A stretch of 64,000 nucleotides of DNA, from contig CAMNDJ010000001.1 in assembly GCA_946535225.1 (NCBI GenBank), positions 12,331-76,330 on the forward strand, written 5' to 3'. A model generated the notes under the pieces. That model saw only the letters and a program-made list of their open reading frames with translations. It was not told the DNA's origin and searched no databases. Numbering within the stretch: the stretch's first letter is position 1; each line of letters begins with the position of its first letter. The position numbers and the translations under genes were made by a program. Shown piece after piece: positions 33,382 to 64,000 of this stretch. Source of the stretch: an uncultured Lachnospiraceae bacterium (GTDB lineage Bacteria; Bacillota; Clostridia; Lachnospirales; Lachnospiraceae).

Positions 33382-33405
33382 AAGGCATATGAGGAGATTG
33401 ATCGC

Positions 33406-33744: not shown

Positions 33745-33754
33745 GAGAATGACT

Positions 33755-34021: not shown

Positions 34022-34054
34022 ATAGATAATAGAAAGTATATTATTGTTAGACTT

Positions 34055-34082
34055 AGTGCGCCACAGGTTGTGGCGCACTTTT
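34055..34082 (+). terminator. Intrinsic terminator
   Basis: Perfect 11-bp stem AGTGCGCCACA-ggt-TGTGGCGCACT followed by TTT. Confidence 0.75.
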
Positions 34083-34110
34083 CTTATGCGGTCAGTAAAC
34101 GCGTCAGGGC

Positions 34111-34139
34111 TTGATTTGGCGCGGTATTTAAGGTATATT
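34111..34139 (+). promoter_or_regulatory. Sigma-A-like promoter for gmd
   Basis: TTGATT, 17 nt spacer, TATATT. Confidence 0.5.
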
Positions 34140-34197
34140 ATTGGGTAAGGCCGCTTCACAGAAAGCGAGGCAGATAATTAGGATTGGAGAAAGATAA

Positions 34198-37130: not shown

Positions 37131-37219
37131 CTTATCCATATTTTGTATAGCCCATATCTTTTATCAGCAAAATATGGTATAGTATATGAGGATTTACGAC
37201 ACATAGAATGGAGTAGAAA

Positions 37220-38170: not shown

Positions 38171-38188
38171 TAGCCCGGAGACTTTGAT

Positions 38189-39235: not shown

Positions 39236-39236
39236 A

Positions 39237-41691: not shown

Positions 41692-41697
41692 GCTGAT

Positions 41698-43996: not shown

Positions 43997-44026
43997 ACAT
44001 ACGGCAGAAACATAGAGGAACCAGAG

Positions 44027-45954: not shown

Positions 45955-45984
45955 ACTTAGAGTCATGGAAGAGAGGTGTGAGAC

Positions 45985-47391: not shown

Positions 47392-47403
47392 GAGAGCAGA
47401 CCT

Positions 47404-48882
47404 ATGGGTAAGGGATGCAGAAATGCACTTATTGCTATGTTCATGAGTATACTTATCCTACCCTCCGTTATATGGGGGGCTCTTAACGTGCTTGATGCCG
47501 CCGGAGTGCTGTCGATTTCCGATATCGATGTTGATACCGGAGAGAAGAGAGATAAAGCTGAGTTGGACGGGATCGAAGAAAAAAGCGATACGACGGAGGT
47601 TCTTACAGAGTATTATAATGACAGACTGCCGTTCAGATCACAGATAATACTTCTTAACAGAAAGATCAATTCCCGGATGGAGAGATCGTATAAGGCGTAT
47701 GTGGACAATATCTACAGCGGTGGAAGGACTGTGGAAGATATGGTGGTGCAGGCAACGGTCACGGCACCTCTTAAAGATGATGATGCAACAAAAACCGAGG
47801 CCGTAACGCAGGTACAGGATTCATCGGATATAAAGGAAACTGAGAAAAGCGAAGCGGTGACAGAGGAAGCAACAGATACTGAGGAAACTGAAGAAACGGC
47901 AACAGAAACAGAATCCTTAGAAGAGCAGATATCGGAACAGGAAAGTGTGCCTGAAACGACGGAAGAAGAGAATGTATACGAAGAAGTGGATATCAATGCG
48001 CTTCCGTATTTCCCCATGAGGATATATAACGATCAGGTCATAGAAGGCCGCGACGGATGGCTGTTTTACGGCATAAAAACTAACAGGGATAATTATGAGG
48101 GACGTGCGATACCCGGACAGCAGCAGCTTGAAGAATATGCAAAGATCATGATTGCGACTAAAAGCGCATGTGATGATACAGGTAAGGAGTTCAGGGTGCT
48201 TATCTGTCCCGACAAGGAGACTATATATCCGGAGTATTACCCTACGGTTGAATTTGCTTCAGAGCTGAGAAGACCGCAGGTTGTGTATGAATATATGAGA
48301 TCTGTGACTGATGTGGATTATATCTATCCTCTGGCAGAATTAAAGAGTGCCAAGAAGGTTTGCCGATTGTATTATGCCTACGATTCTCACTGGAACGGTG
48401 CGGGTGGTTATGTAGGATCAAAGAGCCTGCTTGAGAGTCTCGGAATACAGATGAAGACTTTGAGCGAGTGTAAACCCGCTGAGTTTGTCCCCGTGTCGGG
48501 TGATCTGGTGCTTTTGGGTAATCTGGATATTGCGGATTACGGCAATGATGTGGATTACTATATAGACAGCGATCCGTATCACAGTATAATGACGGTCAGT
48601 GAACTTGCTGAAGACGGCAAGGTAGAGGAATATGTTTCTTCGGCAGATGATCACAGGAAGTTAGTGATCATAGGTGATTCGTACAGTGAACAGATGATGA
48701 AGTATCTTACGGATGTATTTACGAAGGTATTCTTTGTACATAAACTGTCTGTTGATACTGAAGCGGCCCGGGAAGCCATAAAGAACGCGGATATCATAGT
48801 CATCGAGTCCGTGGAGCGAAATGTTATGACTGTTACCGAAACGGCCGGATCGGTGATGAGACAGTTGCAGGCGGAGGAATAA
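47404..48882 (+). CDS. AlgJ/AlgX/DHHW-type SGNH-like O-acetyltransferase component
   Basis: N-terminal TM, 'EKR', 'GRDGWLF', 'PDKETIYPE', and D-x-H (DSHWN) preceding GDS, the permuted order of AlgJ/AlgX. Confidence 0.8.
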   Translation: MGKGCRNALIAMFMSILILPSVIWGALNVLDAAGVLSISDIDVDTGEKRDKAELDGIEEKSDTTEVLTEYYNDRLPFRSQIILLNRKINSRMERSYKAYVDNIYSGGRTVEDMVVQATVTAPLKDDDATKTEAVTQVQDSSDIKETEKSEAVTEEATDTEETEETATETESLEEQISEQESVPETTEEENVYEEVDINALPYFPMRIYNDQVIEGRDGWLFYGIKTNRDNYEGRAIPGQQQLEEYAKIMIATKSACDDTGKEFRVLICPDKETIYPEYYPTVEFASELRRPQVVYEYMRSVTDVDYIYPLAELKSAKKVCRLYYAYDSHWNGAGGYVGSKSLLESLGIQMKTLSECKPAEFVPVSGDLVLLGNLDIADYGNDVDYYIDSDPYHSIMTVSELAEDGKVEEYVSSADDHRKLVIIGDSYSEQMMKYLTDVFTKVFFVHKLSVDTEAAREAIKNADIIVIESVERNVMTVTETAGSVMRQLQAEE

Positions 48883-49733
48883 TGAGAGTAAGGTTTCATA
48901 TAATAGTGGTAAGCTATGATCCGGGAGAGAAACTGAGAAAGACTCTTGATAGCATATACTCTCAGGATTACAGAGATTATGACGTGATCATCGAGGACAG
49001 TGAGTCTGATGACGGTTCATTGACTTCGCTTAAGGATGAAGGCTTCTTTGATGAAGATCTGAAGGCAGACAGAACGAAGATATTCATAGAGAAGGACAGA
49101 GGAATATATGACGGCATGAATCTTGCTCTTGGCAGGATAGATAAGGGTACTGCGGATGTATCCGGACAAACGGCGGAATATGTCCTGTTTCTTAACTGTG
49201 GAGACACACTTCATGACAGACAGGTTCTCGGTGTCATAGCAGATCATGTGATCGAGCAGACTGAGGACAGACTGTGCATCTACTATGGGGATCAGTACGA
49301 CCTTATGAGGGAAACAACAGTATCCTCCAACAGGAGACTCAATGAGTTTGCGCTATACCGTAATATACCCTGTCATCAGATATGTTTCTACGATCTGCGA
49401 CTGTTTGATGAGAGGGGATATGACTTGCGTTACAAGGTAAGAGCCGACTACGAGCATTTTTTGTATTGTATATACAGAAGATCTGCGACAGCAGAATATG
49501 TGGATGTGATCGTATCTGACTATGAGGGTGGCGGTTACTCGGAATCTGATAAAGGAAGAGAATTATCCGAAACAGAGCATAGAATGATAACGAAAGAGTA
49601 TATGGGAAGAAACGCTGACAGATACAGACGGCGCCTTATATTGACAGGTGCAGGATTAAGGACCAGACTTGCAGAAAGCAGAGCATTCTCAGGATTGTAT
49701 AATAAGATAAAGACTTTGGTATACAGGCGATAG
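48882..49733 (+). CDS. Glycosyltransferase family 2 (WcaE-like)
   Basis: EKDRGIYDGMN, FLNCGD, CHQ and ADYE. Confidence 0.85.
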   Translation: MRVRFHIIVVSYDPGEKLRKTLDSIYSQDYRDYDVIIEDSESDDGSLTSLKDEGFFDEDLKADRTKIFIEKDRGIYDGMNLALGRIDKGTADVSGQTAEYVLFLNCGDTLHDRQVLGVIADHVIEQTEDRLCIYYGDQYDLMRETTVSSNRRLNEFALYRNIPCHQICFYDLRLFDERGYDLRYKVRADYEHFLYCIYRRSATAEYVDVIVSDYEGGGYSESDKGRELSETEHRMITKEYMGRNADRYRRRLILTGAGLRTRLAESRAFSGLYNKIKTLVYRR

Positions 49734-49755
49734 TGCCGGGCATAAGGAATATATT

Positions 49756-51072
49756 ATGAAGATTCTTTGGGTTTGCAACACTCTGCCGAGGATGGCGGCA
49801 GTAGCGGCCGGTTTACGGATCGATAATAAGGAAGGCTGGTTAGACGGGGCCTTAAGGGGGATCATCTCCTATATTACTGAGCAAGATGGCAGGGATATGG
49901 AGATAGCCATAGCATACCCCGGTGATGTTTCGGCAGATAAGAGCGCTGTTTCCGACCATAAGGAGATCATCCCGGGTAAGGGAGTGTGCATACGTCTGTA
50001 CGGCTACAGTGATGACAGGAAGGATCCGCACATATACAGGGACGGATTGGAGAAAGAGTTCGAAGATATCATAAGAGATCTTGATCCTGATATTGTTCAT
50101 CTTTTCGGAACGGAGTACGGTCACAATCTGGCTGTGGGCAGGGTGATAGGAAGGCTTCGCAGAAACGGAAGCAGTATAAAGCTTCTTATCGGTCTTCAGG
50201 GTATCATATCCGAGTGTGCGCGGGTATACTCAGACGGGGTGCCTTATAATGTGCAGAGGAATAAAACTTTCAGGGACAGACTGCGTGATGACAATATCTT
50301 AAGACAACAGCAGAAGTTCATGCAAAGAGGTGAATTTGAACTTGAGGCGATCACCTATGCCACGGATATAACGGGCCGGACGGAATTTGACCGGGAGTGG
50401 AGCAGGACTCACAATCCGGCGGCCGTATATCATCACTTGAATGAGACCTTACGAGAGGAATTCTACGAAGGAACATGGGACCTTACAGAATGTGGCAGAC
50501 ATGTCATATTCATGAGCCAGGGAGATTATCCTCTTAAGGGGCTGCATAAGATATTAAAGGTCATGCCGGATATTCTGACAGATTACCCTGATGCCAGGCT
50601 TGTAGTTGCGGGTATGAACATAACAAAGAGAGATACTCTTAAGGATCGTATCAAGATGAGCAATTACGGCAAGTACCTGACTGAACTCATTGCATCAGGC
50701 GGACTGCAGGACAAGGTGACGTTTACCGGTCCGCTTGATGCCTCGCAGATGAAGAAGATGTATCTTGGAAGTCACGTATATCTGTGTGCCAGTTCCGTAG
50801 AGAATTCTCCGAATTCGATGGGTGAGGCAATGCTGCTCGGACTTCCGGTCATTGCTGCAAGAGTGGGAGGGATCCCTTCGATGATAGAGGACGGCAGTGA
50901 AGGACTTCTCTATGACAAAGAGGATGAGATAAAGGACATCCTTCATAAGATATGGGATGATGATGCATTTGCAACAGAGCTTGGAGCAGAGGCGATGAAC
51001 AGGGCTTACAAGACCCATGATCCTGCGACCAATATGAACAGACTGCTGGAGATATATAATGAAATCGGTTAA
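49756..51072 (+). CDS. Glycosyltransferase family 4
   Basis: HLFGTE, PLKG, ENSPNSMGEAM and VGGIP. Confidence 0.88.
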   Translation: MKILWVCNTLPRMAAVAAGLRIDNKEGWLDGALRGIISYITEQDGRDMEIAIAYPGDVSADKSAVSDHKEIIPGKGVCIRLYGYSDDRKDPHIYRDGLEKEFEDIIRDLDPDIVHLFGTEYGHNLAVGRVIGRLRRNGSSIKLLIGLQGIISECARVYSDGVPYNVQRNKTFRDRLRDDNILRQQQKFMQRGEFELEAITYATDITGRTEFDREWSRTHNPAAVYHHLNETLREEFYEGTWDLTECGRHVIFMSQGDYPLKGLHKILKVMPDILTDYPDARLVVAGMNITKRDTLKDRIKMSNYGKYLTELIASGGLQDKVTFTGPLDASQMKKMYLGSHVYLCASSVENSPNSMGEAMLLGLPVIAARVGGIPSMIEDGSEGLLYDKEDEIKDILHKIWDDDAFATELGAEAMNRAYKTHDPATNMNRLLEIYNEIG

Positions 51073-52342
51073 GATAACCATGGTATCCAATTATATAAAT
51101 CACCATCAGATGCCCTTCTGTGAGGCTGTCTGTGAACTGAAAGGAAGCGACTTTAAGTTCATTCAGACTACCGAGATGGAGCAGAAGAGGATAGATATGG
51201 GATGGTTCGTGGATCCGGCGAGTCTGACATATGTGATGACATCATACGATGACGAACAGGCATGCAGGGAGAGGATAATGTCATCTGACATACTTCTGAT
51301 AGGTTGGATGGAGGATGAGTCGCTCATAAGACCGGCTCTCGAAAGATCAAGAAAGAAAAAGCATGCCGGTGACAAAAAGGGACAGCTCATAATCCGAATA
51401 AGTGAGAGACTCTACAGAGAGGGCCAGTGGAAGGCGATCTCGCCAAGGGGACTCATCCGTAAATACAGAGACCATATAAGATACCGGAAAGCGGATGTAT
51501 ATCTGCTGTGCAACGGTGCGTTTGTTGCATCGGATTATGATCTTATAGGTGCATACAGAAATAAGATGTTCCGTTTCGGATATTTCCCAAGGAGCAGGTA
51601 TTTCTATAATGAGAGCGATCTGTGGAACAAAAAGCCCGAACTTAAGAGGGTGAGTATCGAGCACTCGGAGGAATTGCCGGGAGAAGTGCCTGTTTTAACA
51701 CAAAATGAAGTAAGGATCATATGGGCAGGACGCTTTCTTCCGCTTAAGCATCCGGAATACATGGTACAGCTTGCATCCGATCTTGTAAGAAGAGGTTACA
51801 GATTCCATCTTGACATGATAGGCTCGGGTGAGATGGAAGAGGAACTGAAGGCCTATGTAAGGGATGAGATGATAGAGGACTATGTGACCTTTCACGGGTT
51901 CATTCCTCCGGATAAGGTTCGATTCCTGATGGAGCGCAGTCATATCCATGTTTTTACCAGCAACTTCTTAGAAGGCTGGGGAGCGGTCTTAAATGAATCG
52001 ATGAACGCGGGATGTGCGGTCGTGGCCAGCCGAAATGCAGGGGCATCACTTTTCCTCATAGATCATGCGAGGAACGGACTGTTGTATAAAGACGACAGCT
52101 ATGAGGATATGGTGGAACAGGTGCTCCTTCTTTTGGAGAACCCCGAGAGCATAGAACAGTACGGAAGACAGGCTTATGAGACGATATCAGGTCTTTGGAA
52201 TGCGCAGGTTGCCGCGGAGAGACTGATGGATTTCTATAACGGATTTATGAACGGAAGGATAGAGCCTCCGGTGGAGGGGCCTTTTTCCGAGGCGCAGATC
52301 ATAAAACCCGGTTTCTGGAATACGGGTAAACTCAGGGAATAA
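51059..52342 (+). CDS. Glycosyltransferase family 4
   Basis: SNYINHHQ, WAGRFLPLKHP and EGWGAVLNESM. Confidence 0.88.
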   Translation: MKSVKITMVSNYINHHQMPFCEAVCELKGSDFKFIQTTEMEQKRIDMGWFVDPASLTYVMTSYDDEQACRERIMSSDILLIGWMEDESLIRPALERSRKKKHAGDKKGQLIIRISERLYREGQWKAISPRGLIRKYRDHIRYRKADVYLLCNGAFVASDYDLIGAYRNKMFRFGYFPRSRYFYNESDLWNKKPELKRVSIEHSEELPGEVPVLTQNEVRIIWAGRFLPLKHPEYMVQLASDLVRRGYRFHLDMIGSGEMEEELKAYVRDEMIEDYVTFHGFIPPDKVRFLMERSHIHVFTSNFLEGWGAVLNESMNAGCAVVASRNAGASLFLIDHARNGLLYKDDSYEDMVEQVLLLLENPESIEQYGRQAYETISGLWNAQVAAERLMDFYNGFMNGRIEPPVEGPFSEAQIIKPGFWNTGKLRE

Positions 52343-52351
52343 CGTATAAGT

Positions 52352-53374
52352 ATGAATGCAGACAGATCAGTATCCATCATAATACCGGTTTACAATATTG
52401 AACGTGACCTGCTTACAAGGTGCGTTGAATCCGTCGTAAGTCAGGACTATAAAAATTTAGAGATCATCCTTGTGGACGACGGATCGACTGACGGCTCGGG
52501 AAAAGTGTGCGATGAACTTGCTTTCATCTACGGCAAAAATGAAGCGGTAGGAGATCCAAGAGATATCAAGGTGATCCACAAACCAAACGGCGGATCGTCG
52601 AGTGCAAGAAATGCCGGTATCGAGGCATCAACGGGTGCATATATTGGTTTTGTTGACTGTGATGACTATGTCGACACAGGTTTTGTATCGCTCATGATCT
52701 CTGCGATCGAACGATTTGATGTTCCCATGGCTCAGATATCCAGGGATGAGATCGATGCTGACGGCAGGAGACTTCCTGATGTCTGTATACCCCCAAAGAC
52801 AGAGAAGGTCGTAACGGGAGAAGAACAGATGAGAGAACTCCTTATGCACAGAGGTGACTGCAGTTTCTGTACGAGACTGACCGACAGGAGACTCTTTGAC
52901 GGACTGAAGTTTCCGGAGGGTAAGCTTAACGAAGATTTTCTGCTCATGATACGAATGCTTCCGTCTGTAGAGAAATATGTGATACTACCGGATCAGGCTT
53001 ATCATGTATACTATCGTATCGGAAGTAATTCAAGGAGCGGAGATAAGGAAGTGTTCAGAACGGTATTCATGGACATAGTGGATAATTCAGATACAGCCAT
53101 GAAACTGGTAGAAGAGCGCTATCCTGCGCTTAAGGAAGAGGCGGCAAGATTTGCTTTCCGTCAGAGACTCGATTATCTGCTTCACATTCCGGTGGGAATG
53201 ATGAATAAGGATAATGAGTTCTATCGTAATGTTGTTAAGTACCTTAGAAAGAATACGGGCAGCATGATCTGCAACAGATATCTGACTGGAAAAAACAAGT
53301 TGTATCTTTTACTCTTATCTGTCGCACCGAAACAGGTAAGGCAGATACATAAAAAGATAAGAGGAATAGATTGA
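52352..53374 (+). CDS. Glycosyltransferase family 2
   Basis: IIPVYN, VDDGSTD, NGGSSSARN, FVDCDD and NED. Confidence 0.9.
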   Translation: MNADRSVSIIIPVYNIERDLLTRCVESVVSQDYKNLEIILVDDGSTDGSGKVCDELAFIYGKNEAVGDPRDIKVIHKPNGGSSSARNAGIEASTGAYIGFVDCDDYVDTGFVSLMISAIERFDVPMAQISRDEIDADGRRLPDVCIPPKTEKVVTGEEQMRELLMHRGDCSFCTRLTDRRLFDGLKFPEGKLNEDFLLMIRMLPSVEKYVILPDQAYHVYYRIGSNSRSGDKEVFRTVFMDIVDNSDTAMKLVEERYPALKEEAARFAFRQRLDYLLHIPVGMMNKDNEFYRNVVKYLRKNTGSMICNRYLTGKNKLYLLLLSVAPKQVRQIHKKIRGID

Positions 53375-54123
53375 CAGTTATGGATTCGATATATATGATC
53401 GTCCCCGCTTACAATGAGGCGGAGAATATAGGCAGAGTGATCGAAGAATGGTATCCGGTCTTAGAAAGATGCAGTTCAGATCCCGATTCGAGACTGATTA
53501 TAATCGATGACGGAAGTACTGATGATACATCTAAGATCGCAAGAGGATACATTCAGAATTATGACAGGCTGGAAGTCATAAGCAGGAAGAATTCCGGACA
53601 CGGAGCAAGTATTTATTACGGATACGGATATGCCATAGAGCATGGGGCAGACTATGTCTTTCAGACGGATTCGGATGGTCAGACCTCTGCTTCGGAGTTT
53701 GAGGGATTTTGGAATGAGAGAAATGACAATGATGTCATAATAGGCGACAGGTATAACAGGGGTGACGGAGTAGCGAGACGTTTTGTGTCCCGAAGCCTAA
53801 GACTTGTGATCAGAGTGATCTTCGGCGTCAGGGCCTGTGATATCAATACACCGTTCAGACTTATGAGCAGGCAGGCACTGACAGATGCCCTGGCTTATCT
53901 GCCGGAAGGATACAACCTCACAAATGTGGCACTGACGGCAGTCTTTGCATCGATGGCTGAAGGAAAACTCGGTGAGGATAAGAGGATAAGACTTAAATAT
54001 CTGCCCATTACTTTTAAGCCCAGACAGGGTGGCACAAACAGTATAAATATCATTAAGATCATTAAACTCGGGATCAAAGCGATAAGAGAATTAGGAGATA
54101 TCAGAAAGAAGATGTCTGTATGA
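53371..54123 (+). CDS. GT2, dolichol/polyprenol-phosphate glycosyltransferase-like (soluble)
   Basis: PAYNEAENI, DDGSTD, NSGHG, QTDSDGQ, DINTPFRLM and RQGG. Confidence 0.85.
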   Translation: MTVMDSIYMIVPAYNEAENIGRVIEEWYPVLERCSSDPDSRLIIIDDGSTDDTSKIARGYIQNYDRLEVISRKNSGHGASIYYGYGYAIEHGADYVFQTDSDGQTSASEFEGFWNERNDNDVIIGDRYNRGDGVARRFVSRSLRLVIRVIFGVRACDINTPFRLMSRQALTDALAYLPEGYNLTNVALTAVFASMAEGKLGEDKRIRLKYLPITFKPRQGGTNSINIIKIIKLGIKAIRELGDIRKKMSV

Positions 54124-56798
54124 AGACGGAGTATCTCAAACAAAAACTTAATCCGGTCCACATAGCAGTCTCGTTTATCGCGGCTGCAGTCTTCTATGTC
54201 ATTTTGATGGTTGTCTGCGGGATCACGCCATTCGGTGAGAATACCTGGCTCGCTTTTGATATGAAGCGTCAGTACGTGGATTACTATGCTTACTACAGGA
54301 CTATCTTAAGCGGTGAGAATAATGTGTTCTATTCTTTCAGTACCGCTTTGGGCTCAGGCATGATAGGATTCTTTACTTATTATCTTACAAGCCCGTTCCT
54401 TATATTGACAGTTCTTTTTCCGGTTGATAAGATGCCCCTTGCCATATCACTGATCATCGGGTTTAAGCTTTCGGCAGCTGCAGCCACATGCGATATCATG
54501 CTTCAGAAACTGTGCAGGAGAAGCTCTTATATCTGCGCACTGGCTTATGCGTTCAGCGGATATATGCTTTCAAATTCGATGAACGTGATGTGGCTCGATG
54601 TTCTCTTGCTGCTCCCTGTCGTTATCATTTTTACCGAGGTACTGTTACATGAAGGTAAACTGCTCGGATATACATTAAGTGTTGCTCTTATAATCTTTCT
54701 GAATTATTACATTTCCTATATCACACTTCTGTTTGTGGCACTATGGTCAGTCGGCAGACTGTTTATGACAAAGAACAAAAATTTCCAGGAAGTCATCTTA
54801 AGGCTTGGGATCGCCACCGGGGCCGGCGTAGGCATAGATGCGTTTATCATAATACCGACCCTCATTGAACTGCGTAACAGTCCCAAGGACATATTAGACA
54901 GCAGTCTGGCATCCAAAGGAGAGGATATAGGCTTAAGGCAGGTCGTATCCAAGTTGTTCCCGATGTCATTTGATTCCCTGGAGATCTATTGGGGCAAGCC
55001 TTTGATATTCTGCGGAACCGTAATCCTCATACTTACGATCATGTACTATCTGAACAGGCGGATACCCTTAAGAGAAAAAGCGGTAATGGGAGTGCTTAAG
55101 CTCATACTTATAGTATCTTTCATGTTCGATGATATAAATCTTATTTGGCATGCAGGGATGGAGCCTTCCGGTTATCCATACAGAGAAGCGATAGTATTTG
55201 TACTTTTGATGATCATATGCTCATGCAGAGCATTGTCTGAATTAAGGGAAGGAATGAGTGTAAGAGGATGGATAGCTTCTGCCGTTATCCTCGGAGCGCT
55301 TATGTATTATGCTTTTGTATTCCCTGCGACATACATGTATCCCTGGAAGATCAAACTGAGTATAGCAGCAGCAGTTTTGTTATTCATGCTTCTTCTGTTA
55401 TATGTCAAATGCAATAAACGTCTTGTGTATGGTGGAGTCGCAGTACTGATCCTGCTCATTCACGTAGCTGAGCTTGGAAGTAACGGTATATATACCTACA
55501 ACATGGAATCAATGATGAGTGAGAAAGCTTCACCGTTCATGAACAAGGTCGATGATGTGCACAAGGCGGTTCAGTATATCGAAAACAGCGATAAGACTTT
55601 CTACAGGATAGAGAATCTGACCCCGAGACAGCAGAATGATTCGATGATGCATGACTATAAAGGAGTCACTCATTACAGTTCGGCAGGACTTACATATGTA
55701 AGGTATTTCCTTCAGAAAATGGGTTATAACGATGACAGCCTGTATACGGATTACGGTCATGACAATACAGAAACGGCGGATTCGATCCTCGGAGTAAAAT
55801 ACATAATGAGTGATGGTTCGCTTGGAAAAGAGATACATCCGGACTACGAAAAAGTAGCAGACGGTAATGTTTCCGTATATAAGAATCCTTATGCGCTTCC
55901 TGCAGCCATGGGAGTCTATCGCGAGATGAGCGGAGAGGCTATGGATCCTTTTGCGCTTCAGGAAGATATATACGGAAGGCTTACAGGAGAACCGGTGAAT
56001 ATCTTTGTTCCCGCAAATGTGGATTATACTGAGAGCGACAGCAGCAATCCCGTGATGGAATACAGGGTGATCACGACACAGGACGGAGAACTGTATTTCT
56101 ATATGAGCGGTCTCATAGGAATGTTCAGCAATCTTGAGGTTTATGTCAATGATGAATTTCTGACTTATTACGGCAATGATTCATGCTTAAAGGTACTAAA
56201 CCTCGGATATCATAAGAAAGGTGACTATCTTATGGTACATGTTATCGCCAATGATTCGGGTGAATTCGGAAGTGCGATATTTGTAACGGAGGATACTGAA
56301 GCGCTGAAGGAAGCATATGATAAGACCGTATCAAGACACGCTACGGTGGAGCAGTTAAGCGCATCCAAACTTGCAATGACACTTGACAGTGCATATACTG
56401 TAGGAGATGACATAAGCGGAGAGGTCGGAGTGTTTACGACCATACCTTACCAGAAAGGCTGGAAGGTCAAGGTCTGCGGGGTGAAGGTGGAACCGGTCGA
56501 GGTATATGATTCTCTTATGTATATACCTGTGACAGAAGCACTACAGCAGGTTGAACTCGGTCCCGATGAGAATCTGAGGATCGAATTGGAATTTATCCCC
56601 GAGGGCTTTGTTGTGGGCGTGATAGTGAGCATTCTTACGCTTGCCGTCATTATCCTTATGGCTTCCATTCGCAAGGGCGAAGCGAGCTTCTTCGGTGATA
56701 TGGACGAAGAATACGAGGAAGAAGCAGATGAACCGATATTCCCTGAGGCGGATGCAAATGATGGCAAAGAACAAGCCGGAAAGGTAACTGATGAATAA
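54120..56798 (+). CDS. YfhO-family GT-C membrane protein 1
   Basis: PFG...D..RQY, 'YYLTSPF', 'NYYISY', 'FYRIE', 'HYSS', 'GVKY' and 'TIPYQKGW', plus a final TM. Confidence 0.88.
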   Translation: MKTEYLKQKLNPVHIAVSFIAAAVFYVILMVVCGITPFGENTWLAFDMKRQYVDYYAYYRTILSGENNVFYSFSTALGSGMIGFFTYYLTSPFLILTVLFPVDKMPLAISLIIGFKLSAAAATCDIMLQKLCRRSSYICALAYAFSGYMLSNSMNVMWLDVLLLLPVVIIFTEVLLHEGKLLGYTLSVALIIFLNYYISYITLLFVALWSVGRLFMTKNKNFQEVILRLGIATGAGVGIDAFIIIPTLIELRNSPKDILDSSLASKGEDIGLRQVVSKLFPMSFDSLEIYWGKPLIFCGTVILILTIMYYLNRRIPLREKAVMGVLKLILIVSFMFDDINLIWHAGMEPSGYPYREAIVFVLLMIICSCRALSELREGMSVRGWIASAVILGALMYYAFVFPATYMYPWKIKLSIAAAVLLFMLLLLYVKCNKRLVYGGVAVLILLIHVAELGSNGIYTYNMESMMSEKASPFMNKVDDVHKAVQYIENSDKTFYRIENLTPRQQNDSMMHDYKGVTHYSSAGLTYVRYFLQKMGYNDDSLYTDYGHDNTETADSILGVKYIMSDGSLGKEIHPDYEKVADGNVSVYKNPYALPAAMGVYREMSGEAMDPFALQEDIYGRLTGEPVNIFVPANVDYTESDSSNPVMEYRVITTQDGELYFYMSGLIGMFSNLEVYVNDEFLTYYGNDSCLKVLNLGYHKKGDYLMVHVIANDSGEFGSAIFVTEDTEALKEAYDKTVSRHATVEQLSASKLAMTLDSAYTVGDDISGEVGVFTTIPYQKGWKVKVCGVKVEPVEVYDSLMYIPVTEALQQVELGPDENLRIELEFIPEGFVVGVIVSILTLAVIILMASIRKGEASFFGDMDEEYEEEADEPIFPEADANDGKEQAGKVTDE

Positions 56799-57795
56799 TC
56801 TACATGGTTCGATAATAATAACATACAGATGTAATGCGCACTGCAATATGTGCGATTGTTTTAAGGATCCTACAAGACCGGAAGAAGAGATCGATCTTGA
56901 GACACTTAAGAAACTCCCGGATATGGCCTTTACCAATATCACGGGCGGAGAACCTTTTATCAGAAAGGATATACAGGATATCGTGGAGTTGCTGTATAAG
57001 AAGACTCCGAGGATAGTCATCTCCACCAACGGATATTTTACCGACAGGATCATTGAACTGTGTGAGAGGTTTCCGGAGATAGGCATAAGGATATCCATAG
57101 AAGGGCTTGAAGAGACAAATAATGCGATACGCGGGCTTCCTGACGGCTTCAACAGAGGATACGGAACACTTAAGAAACTCGTCGAGATGGGGCATAAGGA
57201 TGTCGGTTTCGGAATGACGGTCCAGGACATGAACTGCAAGGATCTGGTTCCTCTTTATCACATGTCCTGTGATCTGGGTATGGAATTTGCTACGGCCACC
57301 CTTCATAACAGTTTCTATTTCAGAAAAACGGACAATAAGATAGACGACAAATACAAAGTCGCACAGGCTTTTGAAGAACTTATCAACGAATTGCTCGCGA
57401 GTAAGTCTCCCAAGAAATGGGGAAGAGCATATTTTAATCATGGGCTTATCAATTATATTTACGGACAGCCAAGGCTGTTGCCCTGTGAGATGGGCAGTAA
57501 CGGATTTTTCTTAGATCCGTACGGTAATGTGTTACCCTGTAACGGCTCGACAGAGAAGATGTCCATGGGCAATCTTCATGACAGTACATGGGATGAGATA
57601 TGGACGGGGCAGCAGGCTGCAAAAGTGAGGGAACAGGTCAAGCACTGTGAGAAGAACTGTTGGATGATAGGTTCTGTATCGCCTGCCATGAAACAGAGGA
57701 TATGGGTACCCGGATGGTGGGTGATCAAGCATAAGATATTTAAGGGCGGACACTACAGTTTGAGCGAGAATAAGTTTATAGAGAAAAATAGCTGA
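56791..57795 (+). CDS. Radical SAM enzyme with SPASM/twitch-type C-terminal domain
   Basis: CNAHCNMC (CxxxCxxC), TGGEPF, STNG, 'PCEMG...DPYGNVLPCN' and 'CEKNCWM'. Confidence 0.88.
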   Translation: MNNLHGSIIITYRCNAHCNMCDCFKDPTRPEEEIDLETLKKLPDMAFTNITGGEPFIRKDIQDIVELLYKKTPRIVISTNGYFTDRIIELCERFPEIGIRISIEGLEETNNAIRGLPDGFNRGYGTLKKLVEMGHKDVGFGMTVQDMNCKDLVPLYHMSCDLGMEFATATLHNSFYFRKTDNKIDDKYKVAQAFEELINELLASKSPKKWGRAYFNHGLINYIYGQPRLLPCEMGSNGFFLDPYGNVLPCNGSTEKMSMGNLHDSTWDEIWTGQQAAKVREQVKHCEKNCWMIGSVSPAMKQRIWVPGWWVIKHKIFKGGHYSLSENKFIEKNS

Positions 57796-57852
57796 CATTG
57801 TGGTAAAATGTCGGATGTAGGTTTAGGACCGATATAAAGAAACGAAAATGAA

Positions 57853-58872
57853 ATGGAGAATGCCGTGAGTAACATACTTGACAATAAAACGATACTTGTG
57901 ACCGGAGGAACGGGATCTTTCGGTAAATGCTTTACCAAATATGTTCTGGATAATTATGATCCCAAGAAGATCATCATCTATTCAAGAGATGAGTACAAGC
58001 AGTTTGTCATGCAGAATGAGATGAAGGATTATGCGGATAAGCTGAGATTCTTTATAGGTGATGTAAGAGACAGGGACAGACTCTCCAGGGCACTTGCCGG
58101 AGTTGACTATGTCGTCCATGCTGCTGCACTTAAGCAGGTTCCGGCTTGCGAGTATAATCCCAATGAAGCGATCAAGACAAATATTCACGGAGCAATGAAC
58201 GTCATAGATGCATCCCTTGATTCGGGAAGTGTGACAAAGGTTGTTGCTCTTTCTACGGACAAGGCGGTGAATCCTGTCAATCTCTACGGCGGGACCAAGC
58301 TTGTATCGGATAAGCTTTTTATTGCGGCCAATGCATACAGCGGAGTTAAGGATATCAATTTCTCAATCGTTCGTTACGGTAATGTTGCCGGGAGCAGAGG
58401 CTCGGTCATTCCGTTTTTCAACAATATCATCAAAAACGGCGGAAGGGAGCTTCCGATCACGGATTATCGAATGACAAGATTCTGGATAAGTCTGACACAG
58501 GGTGTTGAGCTTGTCATCAAGGCGCTCAGCGAGGCAAGAGGAGGAGAGACATTCATAAGCAAGATCCCTTCATTTAAGATCACCGATCTGGCTCAGGCGA
58601 TGCTTCCGGGATGTGAGATGCCTGAGGTCGGTATCAGAGAGGGAGAGAAACTCCATGAGATCATGGTGACCGTGGAGGATTCCATGACGACTTATGAATA
58701 TGACAAACATTTCATCGTATATCCTCAGATGACATGGAATGAAAGACAACAGCCTATACCGGGCGGCAAGCCTGTAGAACAGGGCTTCTCATACAGCTCA
58801 GGCAATAATACCGAATGGCTTACCGTAGAGCAGATACAGGAATTGCTTAAGTCAGTGGATCTGGAGAAGTGA
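57853..58872 (+). CDS. pseB: UDP-N-acetylglucosamine 4,6-dehydratase (inverting)
   Basis: TGGTGSFG, YSRDEYKQ, HAAALKQVPACEYNP, STDKA, YGGTK, RYGNVAGSRGSV and GEKLHE. Alternative GTG start at 57865. Upstream TGGTAAAAT at 57801-57809. Confidence 0.9.
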   Translation: MENAVSNILDNKTILVTGGTGSFGKCFTKYVLDNYDPKKIIIYSRDEYKQFVMQNEMKDYADKLRFFIGDVRDRDRLSRALAGVDYVVHAAALKQVPACEYNPNEAIKTNIHGAMNVIDASLDSGSVTKVVALSTDKAVNPVNLYGGTKLVSDKLFIAANAYSGVKDINFSIVRYGNVAGSRGSVIPFFNNIIKNGGRELPITDYRMTRFWISLTQGVELVIKALSEARGGETFISKIPSFKITDLAQAMLPGCEMPEVGIREGEKLHEIMVTVEDSMTTYEYDKHFIVYPQMTWNERQQPIPGGKPVEQGFSYSSGNNTEWLTVEQIQELLKSVDLEK

Positions 58873-58896: not shown

Positions 58897-61614
58897 ATGA
58901 ATAACGTTTTTTTCGCTAAAAGAAAAGATTCAAGATACATATACGCCTGCCTAGCAGGCGTTATTGTTATACTTATGTATCTTGCTCTGCTCATCGTATG
59001 CCGGATAACTCCGTTTGGTGACAATACGTGGGTGATGTATGATCTGAAGAGACAATACATAGATTTCTACTCATACTACAGGCAGGTATGCATGGGCGAA
59101 GAAAACGTATTGTATTCTTTTAAGACAGCACTCGGATCCGGGATGATCGGATTCTTCGTATACTATCTTAACAATCCGCTTTTTCTCATTTTCAATCTGT
59201 TCGCAGAGGAAGATCTTCCGAATGCGATCACACTCGTGATAGGGCTTACACTTGTTATCGGAGCCGTTATCATGGCTTTATTCCTCACATGGTATACGGA
59301 TGGAAAGAATAGAAACCGGCAGATAACGGAAGAAGCAGGAGGATCGGGCGACGATCCGGTCATCAGCCCAACAGGGATCCTGATGGGATCAGTTGCATGG
59401 GCATTCAGCGGATTTCTGATCGCGCACGGCATGAACATGATGTGGACGGATGTCGTGATCATGCTGCCTGTCATCATCTATGCCACAGAGGGTATGATAA
59501 GGGCAGATAAGCCGGGTATCAGAGAGCGTGTGATCTATGTCATATCACTGTCCGTCATTCTTCTTTTCAACTACTATATCTCCTACCAGGTGCTTCTGTA
59601 TGTTGCCATATGGACACTTATAAGTTTGTGGGTCAGTAAGGAAGAGCATCCGGTAAGGAAGATAGCGGACCTGGCCCTCTGTACGGTCATTCCGGTCTTG
59701 ATCGATTCCGTCGTACTTCTGCCCACTCTTTTAGAACTTGCCGACAGTCCCAAGGACATAACCAAACTCGGTATGGAAGCTACCGGCAGGATGCTGTCTC
59801 CGGTTGATGTGTTCAGTAAGATCTTTATACTGGCATATGATGAGATACAACCGAGATTCGGTCTTCCGCAGGTATATGCGGGAGTCATTATGCTGATCCC
59901 GGCTATAATGTTCTTCCTTAACGGAAAACGCTCTGTAAGAGAGAGGATCGGAAGGTTATTACTTTTGTCCGTATTACTTCTGTCTTTTTGTATAGATCAG
60001 TTCAACCTTTTCTGGCATGCCATGATGGAACCGTCGGGCCATCCTTACAGACAGGCACCTTTATTTGTATTTACGCTCTTATTGTGTGCCGTAGACAGTA
60101 TAAGTGAGATCGGGATGTGTGGATCCGTAAGACCTGATGAAAGAGAAGATGAGCAGACCGGCAGGAAGCGATTTACTGTGAACTGCCTGTGCACTTTTCT
60201 CATACTTGAACTGATTCTTGTCATTGTGACTGTAAAAGGATATGAATATACGGGGCGCAAGATGTTTGCGGCCAATCAGGTGTTGATCTTTATCGGGGTC
60301 ATGGGTTTTTACATATCCGGGATTGTTAAGAAACGACCATTATCAAAAGTGATAATGATATTGATGCCGGCTCTGCTGGCGTTTGAACTGCTGGCTAATG
60401 CCGCGTTCACATACCCGTTTATTTCCATGAACGGAGAAAAGATGTCATCCTACCGGATCAAGGTAAGGGAGACCAAAGAAACGGTAGACCGGATAAAGAC
60501 CTCTGACAGGGGGTTCTACCGCATGGAGAATCTTACACCCAGGCAGCAGAATGACGGGATGATGTACGGTTACAACGGAGTCACCCACTACAGTTCGGCA
60601 GGAATGACCTACGTGAGATATCTGCTTCAGAAACTTGGTTATAACGATGACGCCCTCTATACCCATTACGGACATGACAATACTGTCACAATGGACATGC
60701 TGCTCGGTATCAGATATGTGATCACCGAAGATGATCTATATGTCCATCACGGATATGACCTGATGGAAGATCTCTCAGGTGAAAAAGAGCATGTATTTAA
60801 GAATCCTTATGCTCTGCCTCCTGCGATCTGCGTGGCGAACTATGACCTCGACGGTATTATGGACATAGGTGACCCGAGGAAGATCCCGGGGGATCCTTTC
60901 TCTGTTCAGGAAGATATGGTGAGCAGGCTGACAGGTCATAAGGCGGAGATATTCAAGCCTCTGAAACAGGAAGTAAGTACTACGGACACATCCATGGATG
61001 CGGTGCTTATGACAAGGGAAGCGGGCGAGGTGTATATGTATCTTGACGGGATCATGGATAAGATCCAGGGACTGGCCGTATATAAGGATGACGAGTTCCT
61101 TACAGGCTACGGCAACTTAGGATGCTATAAGATTTTAAACCTCGGATATCATGATGCCGGAGAAAAGATATGCATAAGGGTTGAAGCAGATTCCGAAGAA
61201 GCGGATTTCGGAGTACCAGTATTTGTGACGGAAGACATGGATGCGGTAAAAGAAGCATATGATGAGATATCGCCTAAATGTCCGGATGTAGAACTGGTCG
61301 GTCCTTCTTCGATCGTGATCAGAGGGATCCATGATAATGCGGACATCTATACTTCGATCCCATATGAGAAGGGCTGGAGCACAGACGGGGTCAGGGTATA
61401 CGGAGCTTTTATGTATATCCCGTATGAGGAAGCTGCCGTTTCACTGAGCGACAACGGTGAACTGATATTACGGTTCGTCCCGGCCGGAATGAGGGCCGGA
61501 GCCGTAATATCGTCAGTCGCCATGATTTTTTGCCTGATATACATCGCTGTAATGTATAAGAAGGCGGAGTCTGCGGGAAAGATGCAGGATCGAAAGGAAA
61601 GACGTAAAGATTGA
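58897..61614 (+). CDS. YfhO-family GT-C membrane protein 2
   Basis: Same motif series as the 54120 paralogue (PFGDNTW...DLKRQY, NYYISY, FYRME, HYSSAG, SIPYEKGW). Confidence 0.88.
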   Translation: MNNVFFAKRKDSRYIYACLAGVIVILMYLALLIVCRITPFGDNTWVMYDLKRQYIDFYSYYRQVCMGEENVLYSFKTALGSGMIGFFVYYLNNPLFLIFNLFAEEDLPNAITLVIGLTLVIGAVIMALFLTWYTDGKNRNRQITEEAGGSGDDPVISPTGILMGSVAWAFSGFLIAHGMNMMWTDVVIMLPVIIYATEGMIRADKPGIRERVIYVISLSVILLFNYYISYQVLLYVAIWTLISLWVSKEEHPVRKIADLALCTVIPVLIDSVVLLPTLLELADSPKDITKLGMEATGRMLSPVDVFSKIFILAYDEIQPRFGLPQVYAGVIMLIPAIMFFLNGKRSVRERIGRLLLLSVLLLSFCIDQFNLFWHAMMEPSGHPYRQAPLFVFTLLLCAVDSISEIGMCGSVRPDEREDEQTGRKRFTVNCLCTFLILELILVIVTVKGYEYTGRKMFAANQVLIFIGVMGFYISGIVKKRPLSKVIMILMPALLAFELLANAAFTYPFISMNGEKMSSYRIKVRETKETVDRIKTSDRGFYRMENLTPRQQNDGMMYGYNGVTHYSSAGMTYVRYLLQKLGYNDDALYTHYGHDNTVTMDMLLGIRYVITEDDLYVHHGYDLMEDLSGEKEHVFKNPYALPPAICVANYDLDGIMDIGDPRKIPGDPFSVQEDMVSRLTGHKAEIFKPLKQEVSTTDTSMDAVLMTREAGEVYMYLDGIMDKIQGLAVYKDDEFLTGYGNLGCYKILNLGYHDAGEKICIRVEADSEEADFGVPVFVTEDMDAVKEAYDEISPKCPDVELVGPSSIVIRGIHDNADIYTSIPYEKGWSTDGVRVYGAFMYIPYEEAAVSLSDNGELILRFVPAGMRAGAVISSVAMIFCLIYIAVMYKKAESAGKMQDRKERRKD

Positions 61615-63053
61615 ACAGAAGAAATGATATCATCAAATTCATATTGATGCTTATCGCTGTTATAGTCATTATATCGCTGTGTGTGAGGGATTCTTCTGAC
61701 CGTGTTGACAGGAAATATATTCGGGCAGGCGGACGTGACATAGCCGTATTCAGCTCGGATGATAAGGATTATCTCTTCCTGCCGGGATATATGGATGAAG
61801 CTAAGATAAAGAGGACTAAGGCTTTCGGGAAATACGATCCTGAGATCATAAGGTACACAGGACTGCCGACCTTATATATCGAGACAACGGCAGGTAATAT
61901 CGACAAAGTCCTGGAAGATAAAGATTATAAGGAACCCGGAAGGATAAGTGTCTATGACGCGGCGGGTAATAAGGAATACAGTGGAGGACTTGAGTATATA
62001 AAGGGCAGGGGTAATTACACATGGGTGTCGGAGGAATGGCCTAAGAAACCTTTTTCCATAGTCCTTAAGAAAGAGACATCGCTGCTTGGTCAACCCGCCG
62101 GTACCAAATTTGCTCTTATCGCCAATGCTTCCGATGACACACTCATAAGAAATGACCTGGCACGGAGCATACAGGAAGAACTTCAGTTTAAATATGCGAC
62201 CCGCGGTTCATTTACAGGGTTATATATTGACGGAGAATTCAAAGGGATCTACTATCTGTGCGCGCCGCCGGATATCGGAAAAGCGAGGATAGACATAGCA
62301 ACGGCAGGTTCCGACATAACAGGCGGCTATCTGATGGAGCGAGAGTATGTGGACAGATTTGCACTAGAGGAAGATAAGATAGCATGTCCCGTTGTTACAG
62401 ACGGAGAAGAACACTTTATCGTACATGAGCCGGATTATGCCACACAAGAGCAGTTAGAATACTTAAGAGACTATATGAACAAGGTGGAATCTGCTATAAT
62501 AACACCCGGAGGCGATGATGAGGAAGATGCAAGGTATTCGGAATATATAGACACGGAGACTTTTGTACTTGCTTATCTTACGGAGGAAATAGCCAAGAAC
62601 TATGACGCCGGCGTGTCGAGCGGTTTCTGTTATAAGGTAAGTGACAGGGACGGCGGTAAGCTCTATTGTGCTCCGGGATGGGATTTTGATATGACTCTTG
62701 GGAGCTATCAGGACTGGATGGGTTATGACTCCCCTCAGGGTCTTACCAGGATGTATCCGCATTCGGATGCCTCTACTTGGTTCATAAGCCTGCAATTTAA
62801 GGACTCTTTCAGAGATCGGTATACGCAAGCCTACCGTGATAACAGAGATGCGATAGCGGATATTCTCTATGGAAAGAGACTTAAGCAGACAAGGGAAATG
62901 CTTGCCGGCGCATATGAAGCGGAGTATATAAGGTGGAAGACCATGTATGATGACAGAGGTGTCATACCGGGAAGTGATGATGCATATTCGCATCTTACGG
63001 ACTTTGCCCGTGAGAGGATCGATTTTCTGGATTTGGTATGGAGTACAGAATAG
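61611..63053 (+). CDS. CotH-family kinase with N-terminal membrane anchor
   Basis: KGRGNYTW, KKPF, RN, GIYYL, GGYLME, KNYD and WDFD. TTG start overlaps the yfhO2 stop. Confidence 0.82.
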   Translation: MNRRNDIIKFILMLIAVIVIISLCVRDSSDRVDRKYIRAGGRDIAVFSSDDKDYLFLPGYMDEAKIKRTKAFGKYDPEIIRYTGLPTLYIETTAGNIDKVLEDKDYKEPGRISVYDAAGNKEYSGGLEYIKGRGNYTWVSEEWPKKPFSIVLKKETSLLGQPAGTKFALIANASDDTLIRNDLARSIQEELQFKYATRGSFTGLYIDGEFKGIYYLCAPPDIGKARIDIATAGSDITGGYLMEREYVDRFALEEDKIACPVVTDGEEHFIVHEPDYATQEQLEYLRDYMNKVESAIITPGGDDEEDARYSEYIDTETFVLAYLTEEIAKNYDAGVSSGFCYKVSDRDGGKLYCAPGWDFDMTLGSYQDWMGYDSPQGLTRMYPHSDASTWFISLQFKDSFRDRYTQAYRDNRDAIADILYGKRLKQTREMLAGAYEAEYIRWKTMYDDRGVIPGSDDAYSHLTDFARERIDFLDLVWSTE

Positions 63054-63718
63054 AAGATAAATACATAGTCAGTGAAGAGCTCTGGCGGACTATAGAGAAC
63101 GGACTTAAGGCGGTCTGTGAGCCGGATGTACATGGACATGACGGAGGTTATACCGTCAGAAGTGTCTATTTTGACGATATGTACGATACATGTCTTGCAG
63201 AGAATGAAGCCGGAGTCGACGGGCGAGAGAAGTTCAGGATAAGGACTTATGATCTGGGAGATGATCTGATACATTTGGAGCTTAAGAGTAAGTTAAGAGG
63301 CTTTACGAATAAAAGATCCGCGCGACTTAGTCGTCATGAAGCAGAGCGGCTTTTTGACCGTGATGATGACCTGTATCTTGACACGGATTCGGAACTTGTC
63401 ACAAAGCTCTGCACAGAGATGAAATACAGACGGATGCAGCCGGTGATCCTGATAGAATACGAGAGAACGGCATACACGTATGGCACCGGTAATGTGAGGA
63501 TCACTTATGACAGGAATATAGGAGCATGTAAGGATCATAGCCTTATGTGGGATGCAAACGCACCGATGATCCCGGTGATGCCTGTCGGACAGCATATAAT
63601 GGAAGTCAAGTATGATGAACTGCTTCCGGACTTTATAAGAGAAATACTTGATATCGGCAGTCTGCAGAGGACATCATATTCAAAGTATTATTACGCGAGA
63701 GTGCTGCAGCATATATAA
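63038..63718 (+). CDS. VTC-domain (polyphosphate polymerase-like, CYTH superfamily) protein
   Basis: R-x-E-x-K-Y (RIEDKY), YTVRSVYFD, REKFRIRTY, LELKSK, YERTAY, RITYD, MEVKY and YSKY. Confidence 0.88.
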   Translation: MEYRIEDKYIVSEELWRTIENGLKAVCEPDVHGHDGGYTVRSVYFDDMYDTCLAENEAGVDGREKFRIRTYDLGDDLIHLELKSKLRGFTNKRSARLSRHEAERLFDRDDDLYLDTDSELVTKLCTEMKYRRMQPVILIEYERTAYTYGTGNVRITYDRNIGACKDHSLMWDANAPMIPVMPVGQHIMEVKYDELLPDFIREILDIGSLQRTSYSKYYYARVLQHI

Positions 63719-63741
63719 GAGTATAAGGAGAAATACAGAGT

Positions 63742-64000
63742 ATGAGTTTTAAAGATGCGATAAGGCGTTCCGTACTTGAGGGATTTGCCAATACTGACAT
63801 GCCAACCAGTCAGGTGGTGACGATACTTGCCATCACGTTTGCAATAGGCATATATATTTATTTCATATACAGGCTGGTCAATAAGAGCTCTCTTTATGAC
63901 AGGAGCTTCCACATAGCGATGGCTGTCATATCGGTAGTTACGGCCGGCATAATCATAGCGATGCAGAGCAGCATAGTCATTTCGCTCGGTATGGTCGGTG
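63742..64000 (+). CDS. DUF4956-family membrane protein (3' end outside the window)
   Basis: Hand translation MSFKDAIRRSVLEGF...IYFIYR...YDRSF...AMQSSIVISLGMVG matches the 'SLGMVGALS' signature. AAGGAG RBS. Not in the ORF track because it is truncated. Confidence 0.82.
   Translation, partial: MSFKDAIRRSVLEGFANTDMPTSQVVTILAITFAIGIYIYFIYRLVNKSSLYDRSFHIAMAVISVVTAGIIIAMQSSIVISLGMVG

Follow-up and report, generated by a model that had tools for sequence, protein, structure and literature searches.

A VTC-DUF4956 gene pair with exchangeable exported partners in Bacillota, and its possible role in supplying a surface-anchored CotH kinase

The window analysed here is a 64,000-nucleotide (nt) stretch of contig CAMNDJ010000001.1 from an uncultured Lachnospiraceae bacterium (assembly GCA_946535225.1). 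Near its 3′ end lie genes for a CotH-family atypical kinase, a stand-alone VTC protein and a DUF4956 membrane protein. A survey across the phylum Bacillota confirmed this gene set and showed it to be widespread and tightly coupled: VTC and DUF4956 form a constant core, and the exported partner, either CotH or a Cthe_2159 protein, is exchangeable. Many non-sporulating bacteria have secreted CotH-type kinases, and ATP is scarce outside the cell. We tentatively propose that VTC and DUF4956 make and export phosphate or polyphosphate (polyP) that feeds the CotH kinase.

Distribution of VTC and DUF4956

The survey covered 201 Bacillota genomes from across the phylum, the source genome included, and the genome-level counts refer to Bacillota alone; these genomes are related to one another, and co-occurrence counts are given without P values. 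VTC and DUF4956 were found in the identical 31 genomes, with 37 copies of each. Thirty-five of the 37 pairs lie no more than 3 kb apart, and the remaining two are split over different contigs. Among 14 named control genomes both families occur in exactly three, B. thetaiotaomicron, C. glutamicum and M. acetivorans, which span a bacteroidete, an actinobacterium and an archaeon. In loci fetched from genomes, a vtc gene was present within 2.5 kb of 118/125 DUF4956 open reading frames (ORFs); five of the other seven ORFs are close to contig or locus ends, and two (L009 and L053) are considered below.

Replacement of PPK1 by VTC was rejected, as PPK1 co-occurs in 10 of the 31 VTC genomes, the source genome among them, and the pair does not track it. 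A DUF202 partner for VTC (DUF202 being, we assume, the Vtc1 family) was also rejected for the 201-genome sample: DUF202 occurs in five genomes, of which one is VTC-positive and carries it on another contig.

Five loci (L041, L049, L052, L054 and L057) carry two triads in tandem, with each of the VTC, DUF4956 and CotH genes present twice and the paralogues 21–50% identical. These diverged triads, each VTC with its own DUF4956, hint at dedicated pairing. A fusion search returned 53 longer DUF4956 proteins, many of which join DUF4956 with VTC, CotH or Cthe_2159. They were treated as likely gene-calling artefacts and left uncounted, because domains are truncated at most junctions and P0271 is without its FSKY motif, as would follow from a frameshift. 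In P0266, P0268 and P0269 both fused domains are nearly whole, as judged from protein-level domain mapping only.

Exchangeable exported partners

An exported neighbour is encoded on the same strand within 3.5 kb of 29/37 DUF4956 copies, CotH in 22 cases and Cthe_2159 in seven. The other eight copies have neither nearby, and six of those eight genomes have one elsewhere. CotH itself was found in 29/201 genomes, 25 of which also carry the VTC-DUF4956 pair; of the four without it, two hold the short spore type only and two (G012 and G187) an anchored CotH. Cthe_2159, annotated as carbohydrate-binding, is matched at more than 150 bits in 11 genomes, and all 11 hold the pair. The source genome has one pair of each kind, on contig C1 with CotH and on contig C64 with Cthe_2159. 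In the latter (C64:800-4190), the second vtc-DUF4956 pair is followed by a 605-amino acid (aa) anchored Cthe_2159 beta-helix protein in the place of CotH.

An N-terminal hydrophobic stretch was detected in 135/135 full-length CotHs encoded within 4 kb of vtc, a count that includes many close kin and omits ORFs open at the 5′ end, YfhO fusions and four ORFs under 400 aa (0/4 of which reached the threshold). The same feature is present in 9/10 linked Cthe_2159 proteins, 0/3 spore-type CotHs and 0/169 VTC proteins.

The shared export signals of CotH and Cthe_2159 would also suit a different role, in which exported polyP is itself a surface or matrix polyanion that both proteins bind, anchor or trim, with no separate acceptor. 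Binding of polygalacturonic acid has been reported for Cthe_2159 (10.1101/401869), and the 10 linked copies share Asp-rich, near-invariant positions. However, CotH retains its kinase motifs, and the tandem diverged triads, each with its own VTC and DUF4956, suggest dedicated supply rather than bulk release. We regard this alternative as quite improbable.

In two loci, L215 (5273-10389) and L229 (3280-5550), vtc-DUF4956 follows genes for PilR-like sigma54 regulators, and L215 also has one for a PilS-like kinase. The pair is followed in both by a related protein of 307–354 aa without a Pfam match, and L215 adds a CotH and beta-helix fusion. Tandem cotH pairs linked to pel were seen in L118 (9166-10878) and L131 (9250-10983), and the vtc-side copy, apparently without NxD and WD motifs, may be a pseudokinase. 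Of nine CotHs that came out as 'degenerate', seven have a WR-W/F motif in common and resemble a misaligned subfamily rather than dead enzymes.

Features of the three proteins

The gene order at this locus is yfhO-cotH-vtc-DUF4956, and the ORF coordinates give overlaps of 4 nt between yfhO and cotH and 16 nt between cotH and vtc, followed by a gap of 23 nt before DUF4956, exactly as a preliminary description of the window had stated. Its account of the proteins was also largely borne out. CotH, described there as anchored and likely outside the cell with N-x-D and WDFD motifs, has a single hydrophobic segment (residues 7–25) and the motifs R133-G134, N330-Y-D332 and W357-D-F-D360, and the contrast between linked and spore-type CotHs supports a predicted location of the kinase domain outside the cell, unlike that of spore CotH. 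The VTC protein, described as soluble with an ExK motif and basic residues, has no hydrophobic segment and carries R4-x-E6-x-K8. DUF4956 is described there as beginning with several membrane segments; its predicted structure is given below.

VTC (226 aa) matched the VTC family alone in a Pfam scan. When a profile of 100 homologues was compared with the Protein Data Bank (PDB), only Vtc4, Vtc2 and Vtc3 were matched at E < 1e-6 (profile E 2e-16 for the Vtc4-type tunnel domain), and no CYTH structure was matched at E ≤ 10; nor was a CYTH match found in the source genome. Single-sequence PDB searches with CotH and VTC returned nothing significant. In the profile alignment, R4, K8, R67, R69, K83, K92 and Y141 correspond to Vtc4 R196, K200, R264, R266, K281, K294 and Y359, and R143, R154, E189, K191, S215 and K216 to R361, R373, E426, K428, S457 and K458. 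These matched catalytic positions are each kept in 98–100 of 100 homologues, with 99–100 for the equivalents of K200, R264, R266, K281, E426 and K458.

Two features have been used to tell Vtc4 polymerases from hydrolases: basic residues replace four glutamates of the hydrolases, and K458 is catalytic in Vtc4, its equivalent having little effect in AtTTM3 (PMC4641920). With the patch located from the Vtc4 alignment and the place of the motif rather than from superposed structures, three of these four acidic-patch positions are basic in the bacterial family, as R4 (98 of 100, with 2 gaps), K92 (100) and K191 (100), and the K458 equivalent, K216, is invariant. The protein belongs to the same tunnel superfamily as the CYTH hydrolases and cyclases (AtTTM3, YgiF; PMC4641920) and shares with them the metal-site glutamate (E189) and one patch glutamate (E6), but it has no ExExK, the motif present in 5/5 CYTH controls; R4-x-E6-x-K8 stands in its place, together with E-V-K. 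This difference helps the case made in the preliminary description, that VTC is of polymerase type and not a mere triphosphatase or cyclase, and on sequence grounds the residues are polymerase-type rather than hydrolase-type.

The DUF4956 model (predicted local distance difference test score 83) has six helices in residues 3–140, four or five of which appear hydrophobic enough to span the membrane, followed by an ACT fold. Compared with 30 MgtC proteins, DUF4956 gave an hhalign probability of 96.4% (E 1.4e-9) over 193 columns, i.e., its full length; the membrane part alone gave 76.8% (E 2e-5). By profile comparison, then, DUF4956 is a distant MgtC homologue, ACT domain included, although it scores only 14.1 bits against Pfam MgtC/SapB (PF02308), under the cut-off of 31.4, and adds an R-F-R motif and D102 of its own. 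The ACT domain matched MgtC C-terminal domains 2lqj (Z 8.8, root mean square deviation (rmsd) 2.9 Å, 81 aligned residues) and 7qa5 (Z 8.6), in a tie with many other ACT-like folds, and the whole model returned ACT-like folds only. For the membrane part no clear match was found among solved folds (best Foldseek E 2.4, best Z 7.6), a result that shows neither a new nor a different fold. An ESM Atlas search gave two unnamed matches, both below 0.8. The comparison with a Vtc-channel fold was not significant (Vtc3 chain 9umg_E, E 4, rmsd 13.8 Å), and a shallow alignment with four bacterial DUF202 proteins gave a probability of 0.1%.

Nine residues of DUF4956 are invariant in 100/100 sequences (Y43, G86, S89, R92, F93, R94, D102, G113 and G117). 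The R-F-R follows a Gly/Ala/Ser-rich helix, and by the positive-inside rule R92, R94 and the ACT domain probably face the cytoplasm. By analogy, the motif may be likened to the basic lining of the yeast VTC pore (PMC9911596). The DUF4956 membrane domain is a large family (7,465 clusters at 50% identity), and whereas MgtC is found in 73/101 genomes, DUF4956 is instead tied to VTC.

Three plasmids of diderm bacteria carry DUF4956 in other settings. In a Hymenobacter plasmid (L276:7808-11045) its neighbours are a gene of the TolC family and one of 359 aa that has no Pfam match and is adaptor-like by eye, in a cassette that opens with a TMEM260-like O-mannosyltransferase. In a Chondrinema plasmid (L277:8944-11884) it is beside an HlyD adaptor and an unassigned gene of 416 aa. 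In Sinorhizobium meliloti pSymA (L278:7263-9639) it directly follows a caspase-domain gene with a signal-like N-terminus. The TolC/HlyD-type neighbours in the two Bacteroidota records mean that DUF4956 can sit in export-type cassettes.

The CotH profile matched the solved B. cereus CotH at E 1e-70. Like the Bacillus spore-coat proteins (PDB 5jd9/5jda), the CotH of this locus has the RG, NxD and WD motifs and the adenine-stacking Trp. Spore-type CotHs are 352–368 aa long, with no N-terminal hydrophobic segment and no vtc neighbour, whereas this one is 480 aa and anchored, with about 120 extra N-terminal residues. A point missed in the preliminary description concerns the Asn that spore CotH has five positions past its catalytic Asp: in this protein Ser337 takes its place, and among 80 VTC-linked CotHs the column holds Ser in 34 and Asn in 44. 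The catalytic Asp columns are kept in 72/80 (D223) and 71/80 (D246).

YfhO and the glycan context

A surface-glycan cluster of more than 40 kb, all on one strand, contains the triad close to its 3′ end. Its other genes encode a sugar transferase, an EpsG polymerase, GT2 and GT4 enzymes, two MBOAT and SGNH pairs, two YfhO copies, and GDP-sugar and PseB enzymes. YfhO adjoins or is fused with CotH in 21 of the 77 CotH-bearing loci among L001–L081. In-frame fusions, with two adjacent membrane segments at the join, are seen in L017 (3118-7275, 1386 aa) and L006 (2-2515); both are contigs of Lachnospiraceae metagenome-assembled genomes (GC 43% and 58%), and an assembly error is possible. Other frequent neighbours of the triad are GT2, MBOAT, DUF6056, PelF/PelG and DHHW proteins. 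For the present locus, these sequence signs point to a glycan or glycoprotein as acceptor.

Possible phosphate transfer to the surface and alternative explanations

In the proposed pathway the soluble Vtc4-type enzyme would likely dock on the MgtC-like DUF4956 protein and is predicted to convert cytoplasmic ATP to short or long polyP, which DUF4956 would hand outward to the membrane-anchored CotH. CotH could use polyP, directly or through a bound nucleotide, as phosphoryl donor, and would phosphorylate a glycan or glycoprotein that the locus makes for the cell surface. The sequences themselves show the gene order, the near-obligate pairing of VTC with DUF4956 in the Bacillota sample, the polymerase-type residues, the MgtC homology and the hydrophobic N-termini of linked kinases. 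Besides the pairing, the residues and the N-termini, the TolC/HlyD neighbours, the abutment or fusion of YfhO and CotH, the independence from PPK1 and the R-F-R of DUF4956 speak for the pathway.

A series of observations, given in this and the next three paragraphs, weighs against the pathway. The Lachnospiraceae loci L009 and L053 have cotH-DUF4956 without vtc, and the anchored CotHs of G012 and G187 are in genomes where no VTC was found (the cotH gene of G012 is near a contig end, and the G187 genome is 93% complete). In 3/3 of the diderm records, which cover plasmids only, no vtc lies within 9 kb of DUF4956, and likewise no cotH; in other phyla DUF4956 may be less tightly coupled with VTC. 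Of 34 phylum-wide loci only 10 had a glycan or envelope gene, a lower bound from the subset of neighbours scanned, and glycan phosphorylation is therefore not yet a general rule.

The enzyme itself keeps one of the four acidic-patch glutamates, E6, and the column of Vtc4 R253 is mostly Asn (64/100) or Lys (23/100), with R296 not kept either. The retained E6 and the R253 column mean that long-chain synthesis is not assured. Tunnel-fold likeness has misled before: AtTTM3, a close Vtc4 look-alike, makes no polyP and hydrolyses only tripolyphosphate (PMC4641920). VTC could thus be a hydrolase or cyclase (a tripolyphosphatase or nucleoside triphosphatase), with the three genes no more than loosely linked phosphate-metabolism genes, and this would also agree with a VTC deletion for which no defect is described (see below). 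The basic residues at three of four patch positions and the copy-for-copy linkage of VTC with DUF4956 make such an explanation very improbable.

The residues that hold the nucleotide in CotH raise a different possibility. Adenine is stacked between Tyr142 and Trp245 in the solved protein, and Bacillus CotH has Ser/Thr kinase activity with ATP in vitro (10.1101/469122). Among linked CotHs the Trp column is W in 78/80 and the Tyr column is Y in 50/58 aligned rows (22 rows, this CotH among them, are unaligned there), which fits ATP use and favours a nucleotide-binding kinase. The exported donor could be ATP itself, with CotH an ATP-using ecto-kinase, DUF4956 passing or exchanging adenine nucleotide, and VTC regenerating or gating it; the correlation of export signals and the TolC/HlyD neighbours fit equally well. 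Left unexplained would be the full Vtc4 polymerase constellation in VTC and the swap of CotH for Cthe_2159, a protein in which no kinase domain was found; export of a nucleotide appears unlikely to us. It is mainly because the adenine-stacking residues are kept that our confidence is split between polyP and ATP as donors.

Regulation across the membrane, with no export, would fit a further group of observations. DUF4956 is homologous to MgtC over its full length, ACT domain included, and MgtC is portrayed as a regulator whose targets are ATP synthase and PhoR (PMC12345266); among the papers listed by a literature search on MgtC as a channel, none was on the subject by title. In S. intermedius, deletion of DUF4956 or CotH lowered aggregation by more than 50% in sputum medium, Pel was up in the DUF4956 mutant and down in the CotH mutant, no defect is described for the VTC deletion in the accessible text, and all three mutants still aggregate and make Pel (PMC12345266). 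The discordant phenotypes count against the pathway because a linear one predicts a single shared phenotype. They also overtake the statement in the preliminary description that these genes are functionally uncharacterised, since knockouts exist, albeit without one shared phenotype. In such a regulatory scheme, CotH or Cthe_2159 would sense, DUF4956 would act as an MgtC-like scaffold relaying through its ACT domain, and polyP or another signal from VTC would tune glycan synthesis. The variable outer partner with a constant inner pair is consistent with this, as are response regulators, the commonest neighbour cluster (29 loci). On the other side, most linked CotHs retain the catalytic Asp residues, and a kinase outside the cell would therefore still need a donor; the TolC/HlyD-type neighbours of the two diderm records suggest passage of a substance. 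We consider regulation alone to be improbable.

Phosphoryl-donor transfer of some kind, whether the donor is polyP or a nucleotide or the exported polyP is an end product, is likelier than pure regulation or a plain hydrolase. The fullest form of the proposal is a widespread and modular system in which a Vtc4-like polymerase would thread polyP through an MgtC-family pore, prolonged in some diderms by a TolC-type duct, and so supply an ecto-kinase that phosphorylates surface glycans or glycoproteins; in this form it is doubtful as it stands.

Relation to known systems

Compared with the eukaryotic VTC complex (yeast Vtc4/Vtc3/Vtc1; PDB 3g3q, 8i6v and 7ytj; PMC9911596), the bacterial set has the same tunnel domain with catalytic residues kept, and a neighbouring membrane protein with conserved basic residues. 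It differs in having neither an SPX domain nor a fused membrane domain in VTC, in a membrane partner that is MgtC-like with an ACT domain and for which no relation to the Vtc channel was found, and in residues R253 and R296, which are not conserved, and T198, which is Glu. The proposed destination here is the cell surface with a kinase consumer, whereas in yeast it is the storage vacuole. Since SPX is lacking and no link to a Vtc1-type channel was found, the set falls outside the VTC complex family and is at most an analogue, although it may work like one. For the split VTC analogue put forward in the preliminary description, the polymerase-type residues and the TolC/HlyD neighbours speak in favour, but with DUF4956 being MgtC-like the comparison is one of analogy only.

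The triad itself has been published beside pel loci (bioRxiv 768473; mBio 2025) and is mechanistically unexplained. Genes for CotH, a polyP polymerase, DUF4956 and DUF4832 were described beside Gram-positive pel, with regulation by protein phosphorylation suggested (10.1101/768473). C. perfringens NELoc-2 has cotH together with two genes each for VTC and for membrane proteins of the size of DUF4956 (PMC2879425). For S. intermedius SIR_1592-1594, the three genes that were deleted, an MgtC and ACT architecture and a secreted CotH were already noted, and the arrangement was said not to be found outside the pel locus (PMC12345266). The last statement is contradicted by the many non-pel contexts found here. 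As in the pel accessory triad, the same three families form one operon next to glycan genes, with cotH-vtc-DUF4956 contiguous, but the present cluster is of EpsG/YfhO type and not contiguous with pelDEAFG, and no Pel family was found among the flanking genes scanned. In their accessible parts the pel papers point to a role in regulation or phosphate metabolism and do not propose that a phosphoryl donor is exported. The preliminary description had expected a recurring cotH-vtc-DUF4956 triad in polysaccharide loci; the triad does recur, but it is not glycan-specific, and Cthe_2159 takes the place of CotH at 7/37 copies. New here are the presence well outside pel loci, the partner swapping and the YfhO-CotH fusions.

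Three other papers name DUF4956 in expression data only, and the available text of 10.1101/2023.01.27.525886 has no passage with 'bacteria' or 'DUF202'. Neither a mechanism for the triad nor a donor-export proposal was found in the literature within search reach, which takes in few subscription papers.

Organisation of the locus

The features of the locus are listed in Table 1. Pfam scores were 383 bits for YfhO, 118 for CotH (cut-off 23.8), 130 for VTC and 37.7 for DUF4956 (cut-off 30.6). DUF4956 continues past the window edge, the whole gene being C1:76072-76746 (224 aa, ending at window-equivalent 64416), and R92-F-R94 and D102 fall just past that edge. On the genome contig it is followed by a ydjC-like gene, a hairpin and a convergent GT2 gene. 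A promoter scan of the locus was at chance level (24 versus 18.2 ± 4.8), and RNA runs gave 15 short contig pieces among the matches listed, none bridging genes. The closest named relatives of the source genome are Lachnospiraceae and Butyrivibrio genomes.

Table 1. Coordinates of the YfhO, CotH, VTC and DUF4956 genes, CotH motifs and host cluster in the window.
Feature	Position	Strand	Description
yfhO copy 2	58897..61614	+	polytopic YfhO/PgfM-like glycosyltransferase, 905 aa; stop overlaps cotH start
cotH	61611..63053	+	CotH-family atypical kinase, 480 aa, TTG start, N-terminal anchor or signal segment
CotH hydrophobic segment, residues 7-25, basic residues before it	61629..61685	+	
CotH catalytic-loop motif N330-Y-D332	62598..62606	+	column of D223 in spore-type CotH L147
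CotH W357-D-F-D360	62679..62690	+	W357 = adenine-stacking Trp245 of solved CotH
vtc	63038..63718	+	stand-alone Vtc4-type triphosphate-tunnel enzyme (by profile), 226 aa, soluble
DUF4956, first 86/224 codons	63742..64000	+	MgtC-like helical membrane domain + ACT domain (predicted)
host surface-glycan cluster	21970..58872	+	same-strand genes incl. yfhO copy 1

Three other regions of the neighbourhood deserve mention. Within the glycan cluster a 475-aa protein without a Pfam match overlaps a Mur-ligase gene (24753-27345), and the two presumably resemble the MurL/MurD2 alternative peptidoglycan pair. About 1.3 kb of the otherwise dense cluster (32892-34197) has no ORF of 200 aa or more. After the locus, at window-equivalent 66479-69835 (C1:78809-82165), are genes for a PseC-type aminotransferase, an aminoglycoside 3-N-acetyltransferase-family protein and a pyridoxal-phosphate decarboxylase; with PseB at 57853, this set suggests an unusual route of amino-sugar acylation.

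Implications

The three-protein set offers a testable answer to how secreted CotH kinases could get a phosphoryl donor. If the proposal is true, two large families, VTC and DUF4956, would gain functions, and Cthe_2159 would be a second, unrelated consumer of polyP. To our knowledge, it would provide the first bacterial Vtc-type polymerase, the first pore function in the MgtC family and the first polyP-fed kinase with a protein-kinase fold. A possible origin for eukaryotic VTC chemistry would also be indicated. The VTC-DUF4956 core is carried by about 15% of the sampled Bacillota species (31/201), and for gut and rumen anaerobes and Pel-forming streptococci the pathway would mean an added surface modification; it would be a phosphate counterpart of the relays for MBOAT acylation and GT-C glycosylation.

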